DNA of 46,677 nt, taken from positions 1 through 46,677 of the forward strand of contig CAYICB010000006.1 of assembly GCA_964361825.1 (NCBI GenBank). Direction: 5' to 3'. The notes beneath the pieces were generated by a model, which saw only the letters and a program-made list of their open reading frames with translations, was not told the origin of the DNA and searched no databases. Position 1 is the first letter of the stretch, and each line of letters opens with the position of its first letter. Shown piece by piece: positions 6,675 to 37,273 of the stretch. Made by a program: the position numbers and the translations under genes. Source of the stretch: an uncultured Candidatus Saccharibacteria bacterium (GTDB taxonomy: Bacteria; Patescibacteriota; Minisyncoccia; Phycocordibacterales; JACOZG01).

Positions 6675-6704
6675 AGCCTCCGGCAAGGGGTCCCCTTGAC
6701 ATTG
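6675..6704. repeat. 30-bp repeat AGCCTCCGGCAAGGGGTCCCCTTGACATTG (copy 1), palindromic core CAAGGGG-N-CCCCTTG
   Basis: 29/30 identical to 9469-9498. The only difference is the central base of the palindrome. Confidence 0.9.
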
Positions 6705-6712
6705 AGTGGTTC

Positions 6713-6734
6713 CCGGCAAGGTTTAACCTTCCGG
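6713..6734. repeat. imperfect palindrome CCGGCAAGGTTTAACCTTCCGG, same CCGGCAAGG head as the other elements
   Basis: Read directly. Lies 8 nt downstream of repeat copy 1. Confidence 0.6.
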
Positions 6735-9468: not shown

Positions 9469-9498
9469 AGCCTCCGGCAAGGGGACCCCTTGACATTG
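9469..9498. repeat. 30-bp repeat AGCCTCCGGCAAGGGGACCCCTTGACATTG (copy 2)
   Basis: Begins 2 nt after the PKD-gene stop. Lies between convergent genes. Confidence 0.9.
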
Positions 9499-17410: not shown

Positions 17411-18106
17411 TTAGGCAATCCGGTGCTTGCGGCGCCAGATTGCTGCTATACCACCGAGCGCCATAAGCGCAAGGCTGGTGGGTTCGGGCACGGCAACCCA
17501 TGTGTCGGCCGTGATGATGCCAGTGAACACCATTGAAGAACTCCAATCGGTCCACCAGTCCGGTTCTGGACCCGCATCTGTCCACGGCGTCTCGTTGAAG
17601 TTCATGGATGTGCTGGTGAAAACGCCTCCGGTTACTCGACCATCTCCGCTCCCACCACCCGACCAAATGTCGTCGAACTCGTTGTAGTTAAACCAACTGG
17701 AAGTGTTCCAATGGAGATCCAACGCCGGCGAGAATTGGTACAATTGGCTTTCGCCAGTTTCGTAATTATACCAAGTCACATGGGACACCGTTAAGTGTCC
17801 ACTGTTTCCTCCGCCGCCGCCTCCACCAGAGCCACCACTTGGTAGCTCATCGTCCGTTAGGATATTTCCCAACATATTGACGCGGAGTTCGAAGTACGCG
17901 TCACTGGTCGCAGGATCGCCGTTTAACCACAAATCTGTGGTCGAACCGACCGTGGTAACTTTCACATTTTGACCGTAAAAGTTGGCCCAGGCATTGCCGC
18001 TCGTGCCCGTGTCGTTGTTGAACGACGAGCCGGTATAGATTCCTCCACCAAACACTGGCACCGCAAGAACCATCATCGCCCACGCCAAAACCAAACACTT
18101 TTTCAT
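17411..18106 (-). CDS. PEP-CTERM sorting-domain secreted protein
   Basis: ATG 18106 preceded by AGGAGAG. Signal peptide MKKCLVLAWAMMVLAVPVFG. C-terminus VPEPTSLALMALGGIAAIWRRKHRIA is VPEP + TM + basic tail. Confidence 0.75.
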   Translation of the reverse strand: MKKCLVLAWAMMVLAVPVFGGGIYTGSSFNNDTGTSGNAWANFYGQNVKVTTVGSTTDLWLNGDPATSDAYFELRVNMLGNILTDDELPSGGSGGGGGGGNSGHLTVSHVTWYNYETGESQLYQFSPALDLHWNTSSWFNYNEFDDIWSGGGSGDGRVTGGVFTSTSMNFNETPWTDAGPEPDWWTDWSSSMVFTGIITADTWVAVPEPTSLALMALGGIAAIWRRKHRIA

Positions 18107-18203
18107 CACTAACTCTCCTGTTTTTTCGAAGAACTTCCACCTTGAGGCTGGGGCCACGCGGCCACCAGTCCATCCTCGGTAACCCTATCAGCTTGGGCAA
18201 TAT

Positions 18204-20888: not shown

Positions 20889-20958
20889 GTTTACAACTCC
20901 TCAACCCAAGTTTTGAGCCACGCGCTCGCTACTTAGAATTGGTAACTTTTCTGCCACC

Positions 20959-20988
20959 AGCCTAGCACGAATGTGGCTATATTGTCAA
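20959..20988 (-). promoter_or_regulatory. minus-strand promoter TTGACA-N18-TGcTAGGCT (module copy A)
   Basis: Same architecture and partly identical sequence as 22001-22030 and 22454-22483. Confidence 0.65.
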
Positions 20989-21020
20989 GTCTCGCGGAGG
21001 GGTGAAAAAACGGTATAGTT
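20982..21020. repeat. 39-bp conserved block TTGTCAAGTCTCGCGGAGGGGTRAAAAAACGGTATAGTT (copy A)
   Basis: 38/39 identical to 22477-22515. Confidence 0.9.
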
Positions 21021-21047
21021 GGCAAAGGTTAAAAAGTAAGGTAGTAT
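21019..21047 (+). promoter_or_regulatory. promoter TTGGCA-N17-TAGTAT, 7 nt before ATG 21055
   Basis: Read directly. No SD. Confidence 0.5.
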
Positions 21048-21054
21048 TATTTTT

Positions 21055-21252
21055 ATGAAAAAAGGTGAAAAAGTTATCTCGGCTCCTGATTTGTCATTGC
21101 TCAATGAGCAACACGCAAATAAGTGGGTGGCTTTCTCGAGCGATTACAAAAAGATTGTCGCGGTGGGCGACAATCTCGCTGATGTGTCTGGCGATTCTCG
21201 AGTGGTGATGAAAGTTTTACCAAAACTTGGTTACGCACCAGTGGTAATTTAA
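21055..21252 (+). CDS. DUF5678-like small protein
   Basis: 65 aa. NKWVAFSSDYKKIVAVGDNLADV resembles the DUF5678 pattern (..KWVAI..g.vva.g.sl.ev) as I recall it. Confidence 0.55.
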   Translation: MKKGEKVISAPDLSLLNEQHANKWVAFSSDYKKIVAVGDNLADVSGDSRVVMKVLPKLGYAPVVI

Positions 21253-21256
21253 GCTG

Positions 21257-21466
21257 ATGAAGTTTCAGTATCAAGCGGCTTTAGGGGTTTCTGATACGCG
21301 TGGGCACATGGTTAAACGGCCGGTGCTAGAAGTTGAACTGATGGGGGTTAATGGGAAGAAAATCACCACCTTAGGAATTCTTGATTCTGGAGCTGACACC
21401 ACCACAATAAATCTTCAGTATGCCCACGCTTTGGGGATTAGGGTTGATGATAGTGACCAAAATTAA
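21257..21466 (+). CDS. retropepsin-like (clan AA) aspartic protease, N-terminal fragment
   Basis: LGILDSGADTTTINLQYAHALGI contains the D-S/T-G-A active-site motif. The ORF stops at TAA 21464-21466. Confidence 0.65.
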   Translation: MKFQYQAALGVSDTRGHMVKRPVLEVELMGVNGKKITTLGILDSGADTTTINLQYAHALGIRVDDSDQN

Positions 21467-21467
21467 T

Positions 21468-21596
21468 TTACCAGTTTGGTTTGTGGATAGCGAAAATGTT
21501 GATTTACTAATTGGCCAAGAGGTTTTTTTCGATCAACACAAAATTCGCTTCGAGAAAGATCACGATACGTTTGAGATTACAGAGGTGAGAAAGTAA
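21468..21596 (+). pseudogene. C-terminal remainder of the aspartic protease in the +1 frame
   Basis: LPVWFVDSENVDLLIGQEVFFDQHKIRFEKDHDTFEI matches the usual C-terminal ..d.LLG.d.l....i.fd..... segment of these proteases. No start codon of its own. Confidence 0.5.
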
Positions 21597-21647
21597 AAAA
21601 CAATAAACCCGCCTCACGACAGGTTTATTGTGCCTGTCAGGGCGGGT
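21595..21647 (-). terminator. terminator module copy A (minus strand), ends 1 nt after the cassette-2 stop
   Basis: ACCCGCC...GGCGGGT stem with inner GACAGG/CCTGTC. Minus strand followed by TTATTGTTTTTT. 21596-21621 is identical to 22162-22187. Confidence 0.8.
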
Positions 21648-21648
21648 A

Positions 21649-21933
21649 CTATAGGGTTGCAGAGACCACCAAGACAAACAAGATGGTGGAATTTAAAGCG
21701 AGGGAAACAATAATAATCCGAACAAAACCTTTTTGGCTCATTGTGTTGGCTGCGCCTAGGAGTGCCCCAAAAATAAAAGACACACCGAGACTTGAGCATA
21801 CCAGTGATCTCTGTACCCCGACCTTCTCAACTTCCTTGAGAAGTCCAAAGTGAACTAGTGTCAACACAATTCCTGTGATTAAAAAGATTGCCAGGGGGGC
21901 GGCATACACGATTAGTTTCTGTCTGGATAACAT
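21649..21933 (-). CDS. small three-TM membrane protein (cassette 2)
   Basis: 94 aa from MLSRQK. AAGGAG 6 nt before the ATG. The ORF-track ATG at 22017 lies upstream of the predicted -10 (22001-22006). Confidence 0.55.
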   Translation of the reverse strand: MLSRQKLIVYAAPLAIFLITGIVLTLVHFGLLKEVEKVGVQRSLVCSSLGVSFIFGALLGAANTMSQKGFVRIIIVSLALNSTILFVLVVSATL

Positions 21934-22000
21934 TTCAAACTCCTTATCTCGAGACTTTGTTTGGGTAGCGGTCTTCCGACGAGAAGGCCTTTCCGCGCAC

Positions 22001-22030
22001 AGCTTAGCATATTGCACACTATCTTGTCAA
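22001..22030 (-). promoter_or_regulatory. minus-strand promoter TTGACA-N18-TGcTAAGCT (module copy C)
   Basis: Read directly. Shares ATCTTGTCAAGTCTCGCGG with copy B. Confidence 0.6.
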
Positions 22031-22053
22031 GTCTCGCGGGCATTTTTCTTAAT

Positions 22054-22074
22054 GTGTGACATTCGGTGTCAAAC
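22054..22074. promoter_or_regulatory. 21-nt motif GTGTGACATTCGGTGTCAAAC (ACATYNRATGT family, degenerate copy)
   Basis: 16/21 match to 40166-40186. Overlapping palindrome AATGT-GTG-ACATT at 22051-22063. Confidence 0.4.
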
Positions 22075-22161
22075 AAAACCAACTCTATAGACAGAAGGAC
22101 CTCAAACCACAAGTGTAATACAATCCTAACGGTCGTGGGAAATGTGTTACGCCTTAATTTT

Positions 22162-22220
22162 AAAAACAATAAACCCGCCTCACGACACGACGGGCCTATT
22201 TCCGGTCGCTGCGGGCGGGT
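22162..22220 (-). terminator. terminator module copy B (minus strand), stem overlaps the cassette-3 stop codon
   Basis: ACCCGCC (22173-22179) pairs with GGCGGGT (22214-22220). Same 26-nt tail AAAAACAATAAACCCGCCTCACGACA as copy A. Confidence 0.75.
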
Positions 22221-22390
22221 CAGGTTGTCATTGCCCAGTAAAGGGCCGCGCCGCAAATTGTTCGTAACATTTTGCAGGCGAATACCCCGAACTGGCTGAC
22301 ACCTTCTTTGTATTCAATCCTCGCGATCTTTTCAGCGAAGACCATTATGGCTGCGTTCAGTAGAATTACTACAACAACCTTTGCGCTCAT
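22220..22390 (-). CDS. small membrane-associated protein (cassette 3)
   Basis: 56 aa from MSAKVVVVILLNAAIMVFA. GGGAGA 5 nt before the ATG. Promoter at 22454-22483. Confidence 0.45.
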   Translation of the reverse strand: MSAKVVVVILLNAAIMVFAEKIARIEYKEGVSQFGVFACKMLRTICGAALYWAMTT

Positions 22391-22453
22391 ACTTTCTCCC
22401 TTTCTGAAAATTGTTGAGTTGATCAAATGCGGCCAACCTGAAGTTCCGCCACC

Positions 22454-22483
22454 AGTCTAGCATTTATATTCTTATCTTGTCAA
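22454..22483 (-). promoter_or_regulatory. minus-strand promoter TTGACA-N18-TGcTAGACT (module copy B)
   Basis: Read directly. Confidence 0.65.
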
Positions 22484-22515
22484 GTCTCGCGGAGGGGTAA
22501 AAAAACGGTATAGTT
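22477..22515. repeat. 39-bp conserved block (copy B)
   Basis: 38/39 identical to 20982-21020. Its TATAGT lies 12 nt before the scpA ATG. Confidence 0.9.
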
Positions 22516-32287: not shown

Positions 32288-32698
32288 TTACTCTAAACCC
32301 GGGCAATTGGCGGCTGGGGTGTATCCCCTCGCCCGGGCTTCTTCGGCCGAAGCGAAGCTGATTAAGTTTTCGGGTTTAATGCGACTTACCCCGCCACACC
32401 ACGGTAAATAGTATTTTTTCCCATTTCGTGAGGCCACGATCTTGCCGTCATTATTTAATGGTTTTAGAGGCGTCAAAGGTTCGACCTTTGGATCCTGGGT
32501 CTTTAAGGTCGAACCTTGGGTTGCGGCGGTTAGGCCGGGACTAGTGATTGTGAGTGGCGATTCCCCCACCTCATTTTTCGTTGAGAGGCGACCGAGGCCG
32601 ATACCCAAGGTAAAAACGAGGATAGTGATGAAAATAACGGCCAAGTGCTGTCCACGGCCTCCTGTCTTGAACTTTTCTCGCCAGTCTGCTAAGCTCAT
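32288..32698 (-). CDS. membrane-anchored protein with C-terminal Ada-like metal-binding (sunset) domain
   Basis: KYYLPWCGGVSRIKPENLISFASAEEARARGYTPAANC fits the Y-H/L-x-P-x-C...F.s..eA...GY.pC..C pattern. N-terminal TM helix. Confidence 0.65.
   Translation of the reverse strand: MSLADWREKFKTGGRGQHLAVIFITILVFTLGIGLGRLSTKNEVGESPLTITSPGLTAATQGSTLKTQDPKVEPLTPLKPLNNDGKIVASRNGKKYYLPWCGGVSRIKPENLISFASAEEARARGYTPAANCPGLE
32474..32520. repeat. inverted pair of AAGG...CCTT palindromes inside the coding sequence
   Basis: CAAAGGTTCGACCTTTG (32474-32490) and AAGGTCGAACCTT (32505-32517) are reverse complements of each other. Confidence 0.7.
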
Positions 32699-34969: not shown

Positions 34970-35888
34970 ATATCAGGATATTACCTGGATTGATCTTGAG
35001 GCTCCCACCAAGGAGGAGATTGAGGTTTTGGCTAAAGACTTTAACCTCCACGCCTTGGTGGCCGGTGAATTGCGCTCCCCTTCAGCGCGCTCTAAGGTGG
35101 ATGTGTACCAAGATTATTTTTACCTCATTCTCCATTTTCCCCTTTGCCAAATTTGCCGTGTGCCCGGGGTGGCGGATCAGCAAGATTATGGCACGCAAGA
35201 GGTTGATTTTGTGATTGGGCACAACTTCCTGATCACCACTCATTATGAGGCCATCGATCCTCTTCATGAGTTATCGAAGATTTTCGAACTCGAAGCCACT
35301 TGGGAACGGTCGAAGAATGGTAAAATCCATCCGGGAATTATCTTTTTCAAAATTTTGAAGGAACTTTATCGCTCGCTCGAAACAGGGCTAGATTATATCA
35401 ATGACCGCCTGAAGAAAGCCGAAGGGCGTATTTTTTCTGGTGAAGAAAAGCCGATGGTTAAGGTACTCTCCGAGATTAATCGCGATTTGCTCGATTGTCG
35501 CTGGGCGCTTAAATCACATCGCGAGGTGCTTGGCTCACTGGAGCTCTCGGGCGAAGAGTTTTTTGGCGAAAAGTTCCGTTACTACCTTAGATCGATTCTC
35601 GGCCAATATGAGAAAATTTGGCAGATGATTGAAAGCAATCGCGAGACCTTCCAAGACTTACGCGAGACCAATGAGTCGCTTCTTTCCATTAAGACTAATG
35701 AGACAATGAAGACCTTGACTGTGGTGGCCTTCATCTTCTTCCCGCTCACTTTGATTGGTCAAATTTTCGGGATGAATACTCACCTGCCTTTTGTGGGCGG
35801 GCCGTACGATTTCTATATTGTCGTTGTGATTATGATTGCGGTGCTGGCCGTGATGTGGCAGATTGCGAAAAATAAGCGGTGGCTCTAA
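34953..35888 (+). CDS. corA: magnesium/cobalt transporter CorA
   Basis: Two C-terminal TM helices with IFGMNT (GMN motif). Confidence 0.9.
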   Translation: MLRKFKYQDITWIDLEAPTKEEIEVLAKDFNLHALVAGELRSPSARSKVDVYQDYFYLILHFPLCQICRVPGVADQQDYGTQEVDFVIGHNFLITTHYEAIDPLHELSKIFELEATWERSKNGKIHPGIIFFKILKELYRSLETGLDYINDRLKKAEGRIFSGEEKPMVKVLSEINRDLLDCRWALKSHREVLGSLELSGEEFFGEKFRYYLRSILGQYEKIWQMIESNRETFQDLRETNESLLSIKTNETMKTLTVVAFIFFPLTLIGQIFGMNTHLPFVGGPYDFYIVVVIMIAVLAVMWQIAKNKRWL

Positions 35889-37273
35889 AACTCTACAATA
35901 CTCTCTCGCGGGCAGAAGAGGTCTTTATGCCCCGGCAAGGTCTCTCCTTAAATGAACCCCAAGGAGAGTCCTTGCCGGTCACCGTTTACGCTTGCGGCCC
36001 GACTGTCTACGCACCCGTTCACCTTGGTAATTGGCGAACTTTTATTTTAGCCGATTGGCTCACGCGTACCCTTACCTACTTGGGTTATGAAGTTAAGCTG
36101 GTGATGAACATCACCGACGTGGATGATAAAACGATCAGTGGGGCTAGTGGGGCTAGGGTCCCACTAGCCGAGTTCACCAAAAAATATGAACAGCTTTTTA
36201 TCGCTGATCGCGAAGCGTTAAACATTCTCCCGCCGGCCGCCTCGCCTCATGCGACCGAATTTGTGCCCGCGATGATCGAGCTTATTGAGATTTTGATGGC
36301 CAAAGGTTTGGCTTATCGAGCAGAAGATGGAGTTTATTTTTTGATTAATAAGAGCGAGAATTATGGAAAATTGGCCGGAAATTTTGACCCCGAAGGTGAT
36401 TTTGTTTTGTGGAAGTTTTGGAAAGAAGAAGATGGTGATGTTGCTTGGGACTCCCCTTTTGGGCGAGGCCGACCCGGCTGGCACTTAGAGTGCTCGGCGA
36501 TGATTAAAGAAACTTTGGGCGAAACGATTGATATTCATCTCGGCGGCTCGGATCTTATTTTTCCTCATCACACCAATGAAATTGCGCAGTCGGAAGGCGC
36601 AAATGGCGCACCGTTGGCCAAATTCTGGCTCCACGGTGGTTTTCTCAACATTGCTGAAGAGAAGATGAGTAAGTCACTTGGTAATATTTTTACTTTGGCC
36701 GATTTGAAGGCAAGGGTCGCCCTTGACTCAAGGGCGACCCTTGCCCCGCTTTCTTATCGGTACTTTTTATTAAGCACCCATTATCGCAAAATCGCCAACT
36801 TCACTTGGGAAGCGCTCGAAGGCGCCCAGACGGCGTATCAGAAATTGTTAAATACCGTAGCCGACTGGCAAGGACTCTCCTTAAATGAACCCCAAGGAGA
36901 GTCCTTGCCGGTGGCTGATGAAACACCACGAGGGTTCCCCTCGTGGGACGAGCGCTTTAGGAATTGTTTAGAAGCTGATCTTAATTTCCCCCAAGCGCTC
37001 GCGCTGGTGTGGGAACTCGTCAAAGATGAAGGAATTGCGCCGGGCGAAAAGCTCGCGACCTTACTCAAATGGGACGAAGTGCTCGGCCTTAACCTCGCCG
37101 CCGCGACAAAAACCGAACCAATTCCCGAAAATGTCCAAAAACTAATCGCCGAACGCGAACTCGCTCGCCAATCCGCCAACTTCCCCCGCGCCGACGAACT
37201 TCGTGATAAAATTGCTAAGCTGGGCTTCATGGTTGAAGACAAAACTGATGGACCAAGGGTGAGGAAAGCTTAG
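35879..37273 (+). CDS. cysS: cysteine--tRNA ligase carrying three in-frame palindromic insertions
   Basis: GTG start overlapping the corA stop. CGPTVYAPVHLGNWRT (HIGH-like), KMSKSLGN, RYFLLSTHYRK. Confidence 0.92.
   Translation: MALKLYNTLSRAEEVFMPRQGLSLNEPQGESLPVTVYACGPTVYAPVHLGNWRTFILADWLTRTLTYLGYEVKLVMNITDVDDKTISGASGARVPLAEFTKKYEQLFIADREALNILPPAASPHATEFVPAMIELIEILMAKGLAYRAEDGVYFLINKSENYGKLAGNFDPEGDFVLWKFWKEEDGDVAWDSPFGRGRPGWHLECSAMIKETLGETIDIHLGGSDLIFPHHTNEIAQSEGANGAPLAKFWLHGGFLNIAEEKMSKSLGNIFTLADLKARVALDSRATLAPLSYRYFLLSTHYRKIANFTWEALEGAQTAYQKLLNTVADWQGLSLNEPQGESLPVADETPRGFPSWDERFRNCLEADLNFPQALALVWELVKDEGIAPGEKLATLLKWDEVLGLNLAAATKTEPIPENVQKLIAERELARQSANFPRADELRDKIAKLGFMVEDKTDGPRVRKA
35934..35979. 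repeat. 46-nt hairpin element, copy 1 (in frame, encodes QGLSLNEPQGESLPV)
   Basis: GGCAAGGTCTCTCCTT-AAATGAACCCC-AAGGAGAGTCCTTGCCGGT. 45/46 identical to 36867-36912. Confidence 0.9.
36709..36745. repeat. perfect 18+1+18 palindrome (in frame, encodes ARVALDSRATLAP)
   Basis: GGCAAGGGTCGCCCTTGA-C-TCAAGGGCGACCCTTGCC. Confidence 0.9.
36867..36912. repeat. 46-nt hairpin element, copy 2 (same codon phase)
   Basis: GGCAAGGACTCTCCTT-AAATGAACCCC-AAGGAGAGTCCTTGCCGGT with perfect 16-bp arms. Confidence 0.9.

Follow-up and report, generated by a model that had tools for sequence, protein, structure and literature searches.

The gene cysS, which encodes the essential cysteine–tRNA ligase (cysteinyl-tRNA synthetase, CysRS), carries three short palindromic insertions, named E1, E2, and E3, in a 46,677-nt stretch of DNA (contig CAYICB010000006.1; hereafter the window) from an uncultured Candidatus Saccharibacteria bacterium, an ultra-small groundwater bacterium from the Hainich well H43. 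These insertions are genuine: they keep the reading frame, are specific to the lineage, and occupy loops of the protein. They belong to a widespread and mostly intragenic family that is defined at the DNA level and for which presence/absence polymorphism exists, and in related genomes the genes for a Y1 transposase are flanked by units of the same family. We regard the three palindromes as probable copies of very small, non-autonomous elements of Patescibacteria similar to repetitive extragenic palindromes (REPs) and REPINs, which would be moved by an enzyme resembling the REP-associated tyrosine transposases (RAYTs) and tolerated by the host protein as disordered loops. Loci compared with the window are referred to by L numbers and individual proteins by P numbers.

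Three Hairpins Within the Reading Frame of cysS

The gene cysS (35879..37273, + strand) encodes 464 amino acids. Its product was assigned by the Pfam domain tRNA-synt_1e (class I CysRS catalytic domain; E=8e-94) together with the CysS_C domain, as well as by matches to solved CysRS structures in the PDB down to E=7e-79. All residues that are invariant among 45 CysRS homologs are kept, including CGPTVY, KMSKS, and the Zn-ligand positions. The conserved N-terminus ALKLYNTLSR places the start at the GTG codon at 35879, which overlaps the stop codon of corA at 35888. For the public protein, gene callers had set the start to the ATG at 35927, by which 16 conserved residues are lost; E1 begins just downstream of that ATG.

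E1 (35934-35979; no strand is assigned to this or any other repeat described here) is an inverted doublet of the repeat unit described below, CCGGCAAGGTCTCTCCTT - AAATGAACCCC - AAGGAGAGTCCTTGCCGG, translated as RQGLSLNEPQGESLPV, and is inserted after strand 1 and ahead of the CGPTVY/HIGH segment. In E2 (36709-36745), two units face each other head to head and form a perfect palindrome of 18+1+18 nt, GGCAAGGGTCGCCCTTGA-C-TCAAGGGCGACCCTTGCC; it follows directly after KMSKS and is read as ARVALDSRATLA. E3 (36867-36912) is again an inverted doublet; it shares the codon phase of E1 and is found in the helical linker that precedes the anticodon-binding domain. As annotated features, E1 and E3 were given the spans 35932..35978 and 36864..36912. 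E1 and E3 share 45 of 46 nucleotides (98% over 46 nt), with arms of 18-19 nt and a loop of 11 nt, while the arms of E2 are 100% complementary and its left half is identical at 16 of 19 positions to the single units at 6682 and 9476. In the cysS frame, the peptide QGLSLNEPQGESLPV is thus read twice (E1 and E3) and ARVALDSRATLAP once (E2).

The pattern GGCAAGG-N(3-33)-CCTTGCC has exactly three matches in the window (35934, 36709, and 36867) and none in 100 shuffles. Folded as single-stranded DNA, E1, E2, and E3 reach -18.5, -23.3, and -20.3 kcal/mol, respectively, with z-scores of -6.6 to -8.6. The hairpins do not have the T-run of an intrinsic terminator, being followed by GGTCACCG, CCGCTTTC, and GGTGGCTG, all inside the open reading frame (ORF), and the covariance models of Rfam 15 gave no match at gathering thresholds across the whole window. 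An identical CysS protein and all six half-elements were recovered on two independently assembled contigs from replicate Hainich groundwater H43 samples (L004 and L005). The organism comes from the 0.1 µm fraction of this well, its contigs having ~47.8% GC and ~4-6x coverage. An earlier note on this stretch, made from the sequence alone, had reported three in-frame palindromes in cysS, two of them near-identical in the same codon phase and the third perfect. Their coordinates, sequences, the 45/46 identity, and the 18+1+18 arrangement were all reproduced, and their presence in both assemblies answers the concern that they are assembly artefacts.

Lineage-Specific Insertions in Loops of CysRS

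The closest ortholog (P0002) shares 75% amino acid identity with the window's CysS, together with the gene order corA-cysS-dnaB-recR. A codon alignment of the two genes revealed +12, +7, and +10 codons (+36, +21, and +30 nt) in the window at the sites of E1, E2, and E3, and the same three gaps appeared against 13, then 45 other CysRS from Patescibacteria as well as against the CysRS sequences of the PDB. Among the 120 best homologs from a collection of 5.8 billion proteins, element-like peptides were found only in the window's own protein. The AlphaFold model of CysS has a mean predicted local distance difference test (pLDDT) value of 91.6. Its only low-confidence blocks, residues 21-30, 281-290, and 331-350, are all coil and coincide with the three inserts, with values of ~50 for E1, ~70 for E2, and 48-68 for E3. 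As the inserts are the sole coil segments of low pLDDT and all invariant residues are retained, they are likely to be tolerated by the enzyme. The proposal that extra residues sit in loops before the CGPTVY/HIGH segment, after KMSKS, and in the linker preceding the anticodon-binding domain was borne out by ortholog alignment and model alike, and the same segments, had they occurred in distant CysRS, would have spoken against an insertion; neither the closest ortholog nor the other best homologs have them.

Such palindromes might also arise in place, by template switching during replication and inverted duplication of a short local sequence. The net gains of 36, 21, and 30 nt are indeed smaller than the palindromes themselves (47, 37, and 49 nt), the ortholog sequence at the second and third site loosely resembles one arm, and the arms in this family remain complementary as their variable N5 core changes. 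Furthermore, cysS contains another palindrome of 12+4+12 nt at 36142-36169 (GGCTAGTGGGGC tagg GTCCCACTAGCC), which overlaps a 9-nt tandem duplication (AGTGGGGCT x2), leaves the length of the gene the same as in the ortholog, and may reflect either chance or a template-switch event. The 45/46 identity of E1 and E3 at sites whose orthologous sequences are unrelated, however, largely refutes an origin in place. Moreover, identical termini, and entire sub-families, turn up in dozens of genes and genomes that are unrelated to one another, and the same unit flanks Y1 transposase genes. We consider an origin in place to be very improbable.

The Repeat Unit and Its Other Copies in the Window

The repeat unit is a mini-hairpin of the form G[G/T]CAAGG-N5-CCTTG[A/C]C, in which AAGG and CCTT are complementary; each arm of the cysS palindromes, GGCAAGG-N5-CCTT, is itself such a mini-hairpin. 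The unit is found either as a singlet, mostly at the ends of genes, or paired in inverted doublets (37-48 nt), whose hairpins measure 16-20 bp. Twelve AAGG-N5-CCTT units are present in the window, with 0.7 expected, and 186 in 386 kb of loci, with 5.9 expected; the syntenic 21 kb of the sister species contain none. Likewise, GGCAAGGNNNNNCCTT with at most one mismatch gave 14 matches compared to 1.3 in shuffles. The window's doublets are E1 to E3 and a fourth one, E4; single units stand at 6682, 6715, and 9476.

E4 (32474-32519; AAGGTTCGACCTT ... AAGGTCGAACCTT) was not listed in the earlier note. Its GGC/GCC termini are worn, and it consists of CAAAGGTTCGACCTT, a 16-nt loop, and AAGGTCGAACCTTGG, in frame in the ORF 32288..32698 (- strand). 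The host gene encodes a small membrane protein with a Cys-rich C-terminus, E4 being located in its variable linker, and the ortholog in L001 has no such unit.

The singlets at 6682 and 9476 are part of a 30-nt direct repeat with the consensus AGCCTCCGGCAAGGGG[T/A]CCCCTTGACATTG, within which the single units read GGCAAGGGG[T/A]CCCCTTGACAT. The first copy, AGCCTCCGGCAAGGGGTCCCCTTGACATTG, begins 34 nt downstream from a VanY-like gene and contains one unit; another unit, GGCAAGGTTTAACCTT, comes after it at 6715-6730 (6675..6730 in total). The second copy (9469..9498; 97% identical) holds a single unit and starts 2 nt after the stop codon of a gene for a PKD-domain protein. An extended consensus, CCTCCGGCAAGG-N5-CCTTGACAT, is common to the window's single units and to a unit upstream of the RAYT-like gene in L024. 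Two intergenic copies of the hairpin had earlier been proposed at 6679-6734 and 9473-9495; the family termini are present there, but these sites are single units within the 30-nt direct repeat and not full hairpin elements. We also considered a composite transposon bounded by the 30-nt repeats at 6675 and 9469. This was rejected, as the enclosed 801-aa gene encodes a PKD-domain surface protein and not a recombinase, and the repeats consist of single units placed at the 3' ends of genes.

Of the four doublets in the window, three fall within a single gene of 1.4 kb, for which we estimate p~0.004 under random placement. Together with the near-identity of E1 and E3, this points to copying within cysS. 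The three hits in one gene had been called striking; several hits per gene turned out to be common in this clade.

A Widespread, Mostly Intragenic Family

We searched one genome per species (185,579 species) for the pattern GGCAAGG-N5-CCTT-N(0-15)-AAGG-N5-CCTTGCC. In total, 41 loci were identified, compared to ~1 expected by chance (our own estimate from the 22 fixed bases), and at least 36 of them belong to Patescibacteria, comprising Paceibacterota, Vogelbacteria, Kaiserbacteria, Parcubacteria, and metagenome-assembled genomes (MAGs) labelled Saccharibacteria. Patescibacteria account for 38 copies, in 29 of which the ten N5 positions, left free by the pattern, are fully complementary, with 17 different N5 sequences. 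Again 29 of these 38 copies, i.e., about three quarters, are in frame inside Pfam-confirmed genes, and ~7 are intergenic or at gene ends. The host genes include ligA (six species, the same site) and nusA (two sites), as well as those encoding FtsK, EF-G, TopA, RecJ, GatA, GyrB, UvrB, TGT, Dus, PilD, a class V aminotransferase, and a PrgI-like protein. The element DNA is read in all three frames (GKxxPS..EGxxLP, ARxxL..RxxLA, and QGxxL..QGxxLP), which argues that the conserved object is the nucleic acid and not the peptide.

A scan of metagenome contigs for the sub-family of E1 and E3 yielded five Hainich contigs with GC content and coverage like those of the window, carrying elements inside genes for a class I aminoacyl-tRNA synthetase (aaRS), TGT (two elements), and TsaD (two elements). 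Multiple elements per gene are common in the clade: two each were found in NusA, TGT, and TsaD, while in MAG H43-bin105_1 one ORF for a 499-aa aminotransferase contains four hairpin elements (L014 335-1831) and a 2.4-kb contig holds another four (L046). The FtsK gene provides a case of presence/absence, with a 16-codon (48-nt) insertion in L034 that is lacking in the 89%-identical ortholog in L011. The arms of the inserted copy equal those of another copy resident in the same gene and the loop differs by one base, so that this near-duplicate within one gene parallels E1 and E3 in cysS. Overall, lineage specificity, the many copies, and the presence/absence in FtsK support the suggestion of the earlier note that the palindromes form a mobile or recombinogenic family tolerating in-frame insertion into ORFs.

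Every intragenic copy that we examined (29 from the genome scan, 4 from the window, and 6 from distinct Hainich contigs) adds whole codons and keeps the host frame open. This bears on the notion that the segments are assembly artefacts or stay untranslated, being cut out of the mRNA or skipped by the ribosome. Hairpin-associated translational bypass exists in phage T4 and some yeast mitochondria, and strong hairpins can cause assembly errors, but nothing specific to the present elements favors such an explanation. Removal or bypass would not need whole codons or an open frame, and artefacts are contradicted by the identical sequence in two independent assemblies and by elements in many unrelated MAGs; we find this explanation hardly credible.

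Other ideas on the spread of the family were discarded. A phage vector was rejected, since the general pattern had no match in the viral contigs of IMG/VR. A length rule, by which an element plus a 2-bp duplication would always make up whole codons, fails generally because element lengths fall into all three classes modulo 3. The excess of genome-maintenance genes among the hosts led us to consider a DNA-uptake signal, which was set aside informally, as no single motif is common to all copies in a genome.

Our palindrome scan further revealed intragenic sister hairpin families with the same X-N5-X' architecture and different stems (e.g., AACACYCGRTGTT, GGAAGTCGGACTTCC, and GGAGGTTTAACCTCC) in L011, L020, L022, L030, L034, L037, and L039 (for instance, L011 4094-4130 and L030 6454-6492). 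They have a recurrent loop, AAAGAnGCCCC or its complement, that is conserved across the stem families.

Old Copies and Upkeep of the Hairpin in ligA

One site lies in LigA, just upstream of the ELKIDG adenylation motif, where a perfect hairpin is present in 11 species, five of them chosen by protein similarity only. Among the 20 closest LigA homologs (≥61% identity), 13 possess a clear element-coded segment, three show remnants, and four have none. The DNA of six homologs was inspected, revealing five perfect hairpins with differing N5 pairs and, in the sixth (L056), a shorter hairpin. For counting pairs we used eight sequences (seven distinct), replaced the loops by AAAA to align the arms, and left out L056. 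All 35 N5 cells are paired and all five N5 pairs have changed on both sides; none of 500 shuffles reached the covariation score, and slid controls collapsed. The N5 pairs are linked by single compensatory double changes (ACTGT/ACAGT, GCGAC/GTCGC, GCTAC/GTAGC, CCTAC/GTAGG, CCTGC/GCAGG, and TTGAA/TTCAA), and between L044 and L008 the loop at the same site is flipped. Some copies are thus old, the hairpin having stayed intact through speciation, and "just junk" may be an incomplete account of them. Upkeep of the hairpin could result from selection, from templated correction of a quasi-palindrome, or from replacement by other copies, which are not separable here.

These data speak for a different explanation, in which the hairpins are, instead of or in addition to being selfish DNA, selected cis-acting DNA or RNA signals, such as cruciforms or mRNA hairpins, recognised by a host protein that is possibly a domesticated RAYT. 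Such signals could act in supercoiling or replication control, recombination, or mRNA stability, and would be placed in genes because there is no other room. Besides the hairpin in 11 species with its compensatory N5 changes, this explanation is favored by the synteny of the Y1 gene with ligA-gatC-gatA in four related genomes (see below), as would be expected for a vertically inherited, domesticated RAYT. Third-codon conservation in the arms beyond what coding demands (10/10, 11/11, and 8/8 versus a background of ~0.5 at identical amino acids) points the same way, but we discounted it, as the loci were pattern-selected and the test is biased accordingly, and used the LigA survey instead. On the other hand, the cysS copies occur in one lineage only and the sister's syntenic region lacks units, so these copies cannot be required. 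The closest LigA homologs also show decayed, remnant, and empty states, and positions vary by gene and by genome. Complementarity can persist unselected through template-switch correction or replacement from other copies, and no function-specific feature was found, there being neither a U-run nor a match in Rfam. Selected signals are possible, but we think them unlikely to account for the family.

A Candidate RAYT-Like Y1 Transposase

When ligA genes were picked by protein similarity only, the gene directly upstream of ligA in two species encoded a protein of the Pfam family Y1_Tnp, and tblastn with this protein detected homologs in the palindrome-selected loci L013, L014, L024, and L030. Several of these genes are accompanied by the units described above. 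In L013, the Y1 gene (139-858) lies between GGCAAGG-type GGCAAGGCTCAACCTT doublets at 72-110 and 831-873. Units of the form G[GT]CAAGG-N5-CCTTGACAT are situated upstream of the Y1 gene in L024, L058, L061, and L063, and in L058 and L063 also at its 3' end. One unit beside the Y1 gene of L024 reads CCTCCGGCAAGG-N5-CCTTGACATAG, which is the extended consensus of the window's 30-nt repeat. In L014 and L030 the Y1 gene is flanked by other palindromes; that of L014 (1943-2542; palindrome AACCCTGCAAGT) adjoins the aminotransferase ORF with four elements. Because the same unit flanks a RAYT-like Y1 gene in related genomes, its product is a candidate for the mobilising enzyme.

The Y1 protein scores 49.4 bits in Pfam Y1_Tnp (gathering cut-off 23) and has an HUH motif (HFH) and a tyrosine within YIHLNPV. 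A sequence-only search of the PDB gave no significant match, and a fold search was needed: with the AlphaFold model (pLDDT 89), the best PDB match was 4ER8, in which the RAYT of E. coli is bound to a REP hairpin (E=2.4e-5), followed by the transposases of IS608 and ISDra2. Judged by sequence and predicted fold, the protein looks like a RAYT. RAYTs of E. coli cleave and rejoin REP DNA in vitro. Homologs form more than 6,000 clusters; among the best 120 listed, all named ones are from Patescibacteria or a plain 'bacterium'.

The Y1 gene is located directly upstream of ligA-gatC-gatA in L058 (5334-6020), L061 (5073-5750), and L063 (4001-4705), and ~1.3 kb upstream of ligA in L024 (5770-6456). Three further homologs have a longest contig equal in length to that of a LigA homolog, possibly owing to the same linkage. 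The conservation of gene order points to a vertically inherited gene and not to an insertion sequence (IS) that hops. Apparently split gatA genes beside this locus are due to scaffold gaps (runs of N) and not to damage by elements. The protein P0241 is the closest homolog and was considered as the Y1 gene of the window's organism itself, an idea that we dropped because both its sample and its species are different. The hairpins could also constitute a vertically inherited and partly domesticated partnership with the RAYT-like gene, which is syntenic and looks single-copy; in genomes with hardly any non-coding DNA, selection would keep the intragenic hairpins as DNA or RNA structures, for instance in supercoiling or replication control, recombination, or mRNA turnover. 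To this we assign a low probability; if true, the compensatory changes in LigA would reflect function and not merely templated repair, and the inserted peptides would be the price of nucleic-acid signals inside genes.

The type of the transposase also matters for the view that the elements are conventional MITEs (miniature transposable elements with inverted repeats), i.e., deletion derivatives of a DDE-type IS that move by cut-and-paste with target-site duplication. Their arms are by definition terminal inverted repeats, and MITEs can insert in frame (PMC10969869). With 37-48 nt, however, the elements are far below the typical MITE length of 70-300 bp (PMC3733652), and they have neither an internal non-palindromic core nor a consistent target-site duplication. 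Across ~0.5 Mb of loci we saw no IS bearing these termini, single units coexist with doublets, and the only associated transposase is of the Y1/HUH type. A MITE origin therefore appears remote to us.

Proposed Mechanism and Its Implications

According to the reading that we favor, REP/REPIN-like elements mobilised by a RAYT-like enzyme, the elements would most likely be moved as single-stranded hairpin DNA by the HUH/Y1 tyrosine transposase. With intergenic space being almost nil, insertions would land in genes, and the surviving copies would be those that add whole codons, bring no stop into the host frame, and occupy a surface-loop position, where they would be translated as disordered peptides. 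E1 and E3 appear to stem from recent copying inside a single gene. We infer that the Y1 enzyme mobilises the elements, that the window's genome encodes such an enzyme, and that the inserts are translated and harmless.

Several observations weigh against this account. The window's elements are linked to the enzyme only through related genomes: no Y1 gene was found by tblastn or Pfam in the 46.7-kb window and ~60 kb of contigs from the same samples (L004, L005, and L047-L051), which represent a small part of the genome. The sole NCBIfam match of the Y1 protein, REP-associated tyrosine transposase (REP_Tyr_transpos; E=1e-13, 51 bits), is below the curated cut-off of 80, and the GTAG/CGTC tag of RAYT-associated REP super-families is missing from every copy inspected. 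The units upstream of Y1 genes overlap promoter-like hexamers and are possibly partly regulatory. The flanks of more than 40 copies displayed no consistent target-site duplication and no target motif, with the palindrome sometimes just extending outward, and element lengths fall into all three modulo-3 classes. Finally, the LigA hairpin is kept across species at 55-89% amino acid identity by stepwise compensatory changes, which is unexpected for a purely selfish, decaying insert.

If confirmed, the mechanism would extend the REP/REPIN-RAYT world to the Candidate Phyla Radiation (CPR) and would show the fate of such elements at near-zero intergenic space, namely in-frame, loop-forming insertions inside essential genes. 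It offers a concrete explanation for part of the many lineage-specific indels in proteins of Patescibacteria. The unit measures ~20 nt, the protein has ~230 aa, and homologs number in the thousands, which makes this a compact natural system for the study of HUH/Y1 enzymes, and the conserved LigA site makes the question of selfish versus domesticated elements testable. There are also practical consequences: hairpins in phylogenetic markers (aaRS, EF-G, GyrB, NusA, and LigA) can disturb alignments, and the many contigs of 1-2 kb with a Y1 gene may indicate that assemblies break at such repeats.

Other Features of the Window

Two further regions of the window caught our attention. An unrelated repeat cluster occupies a small-ORF region at 20949-22515, between a class II aaRS gene and scpA. 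In it, a 72-nt repeat occurs at 20949 and 22444 (85% identity), a 26-mer recurs unchanged at 21596 and 22162, and CTATnTTGTCAAGTCTCGCGG is present three times. The ORF 21257..21466 has a retropepsin-like LDSGADTT motif. In addition, a 248-aa protein encoded at 17411-18157 (- strand) has a C-terminal PEP-CTERM sorting motif (Pfam E=3e-7), which seemed unexpected for a Patescibacteria contig.

Comparison with Known Systems

REP/REPIN-RAYT systems were described by Bertels & Rainey 2011 (PMC3116915, PMC3337134) and Di Nocera et al. 2013 (PMC3733652), and a RAYT gene flanked by REP units is termed a REPtron (PMC3116915, PMC3337134, PMC3733652). Within the limited literature collection that we searched, no paper ties REP, RAYT, or RPE-like elements (Rickettsia palindromic elements, RPEs) to Patescibacteria, CPR, or Parcubacteria, and the family is apparently undescribed. 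The earlier statement that no description was known for this kind of genome agrees with our search, but intragenic REPs are known in other phyla (PMC3733652), so the phenomenon appears new for this kind of genome and not new in kind. In Opitutus, Thauera, and Rickettsia, REP dimers have been reported inside genes, where they encode 20-30 aa and are sometimes present twice in one gene; their hosts include repair genes, a DNA ligase, and tRNA synthetases (PMC3733652; PMC10969869).

The elements of Patescibacteria share with REP/REPIN a short palindromic unit, found singly at the ends of genes or doubled in inverted orientation so that a larger hairpin forms, as well as several sub-families per genome and, in related genomes, a unit-flanked Y1/HUH gene in conserved synteny across species. 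As in the intragenic REPs, dimers (here ~13-16 aa) are found in repair and replication genes, DNA ligase, and tRNA synthetases. In contrast to REP, there is no GTAG/CGTC tag, and the termini are G[G/T]CAAGG...CCTTG[A/C]C(AT[AT]). The unit is very small, with a stem of 4-8 bp and a variable 5-nt core, the spacer of the doublet measures 1-16 nt and not tens of nt, and ~3/4 of the copies are intragenic, whereas REPs are mainly extragenic. The host phylum, Patescibacteria, differs as well, and the Y1 protein falls below the NCBIfam cut-off that applies to RAYTs.

The IS200/IS605 family (IS608 and ISDra2 TnpA) has in common with the present system the HUH/Y1 fold (ranks 2-14 of the fold search), and its enzymes recognise DNA hairpins and leave no target-site duplication. 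Here, unlike in IS200/IS605, the Y1 gene lies outside the tiny, symmetric, non-coding repeats, and we saw no TnpB partner. The mobile hairpins of mitochondria (GC clusters of yeast and double-hairpin elements) are likewise small GC-rich hairpins that spread in a compact genome and can sit in coding sequence; they are organellar, have no associated HUH enzyme, and are in some cases bypassed in translation and not translated.

A parallel in mode of insertion is provided by the RPEs (Ogata et al. 2000, 2002), which were first reported as ~150 bp long and encode a family-specific peptide in one frame (PMC10969869), and of which RPE-4 and RPE-6 are REP-like (PMC3733652; PMC10969869). Measured against the published descriptions of RPEs, the elements of Patescibacteria are set apart by their length of 37-48 nt, the use of three frames, another host lineage, and a candidate enzyme. 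The analogy to RPEs that the earlier note had drawn nevertheless fits the way of working: in both cases, a reduced genome carries in-frame palindromes in many housekeeping genes that are unrelated to each other, sometimes more than one per gene, at surface loops where they are compatible with the fold of the host protein.

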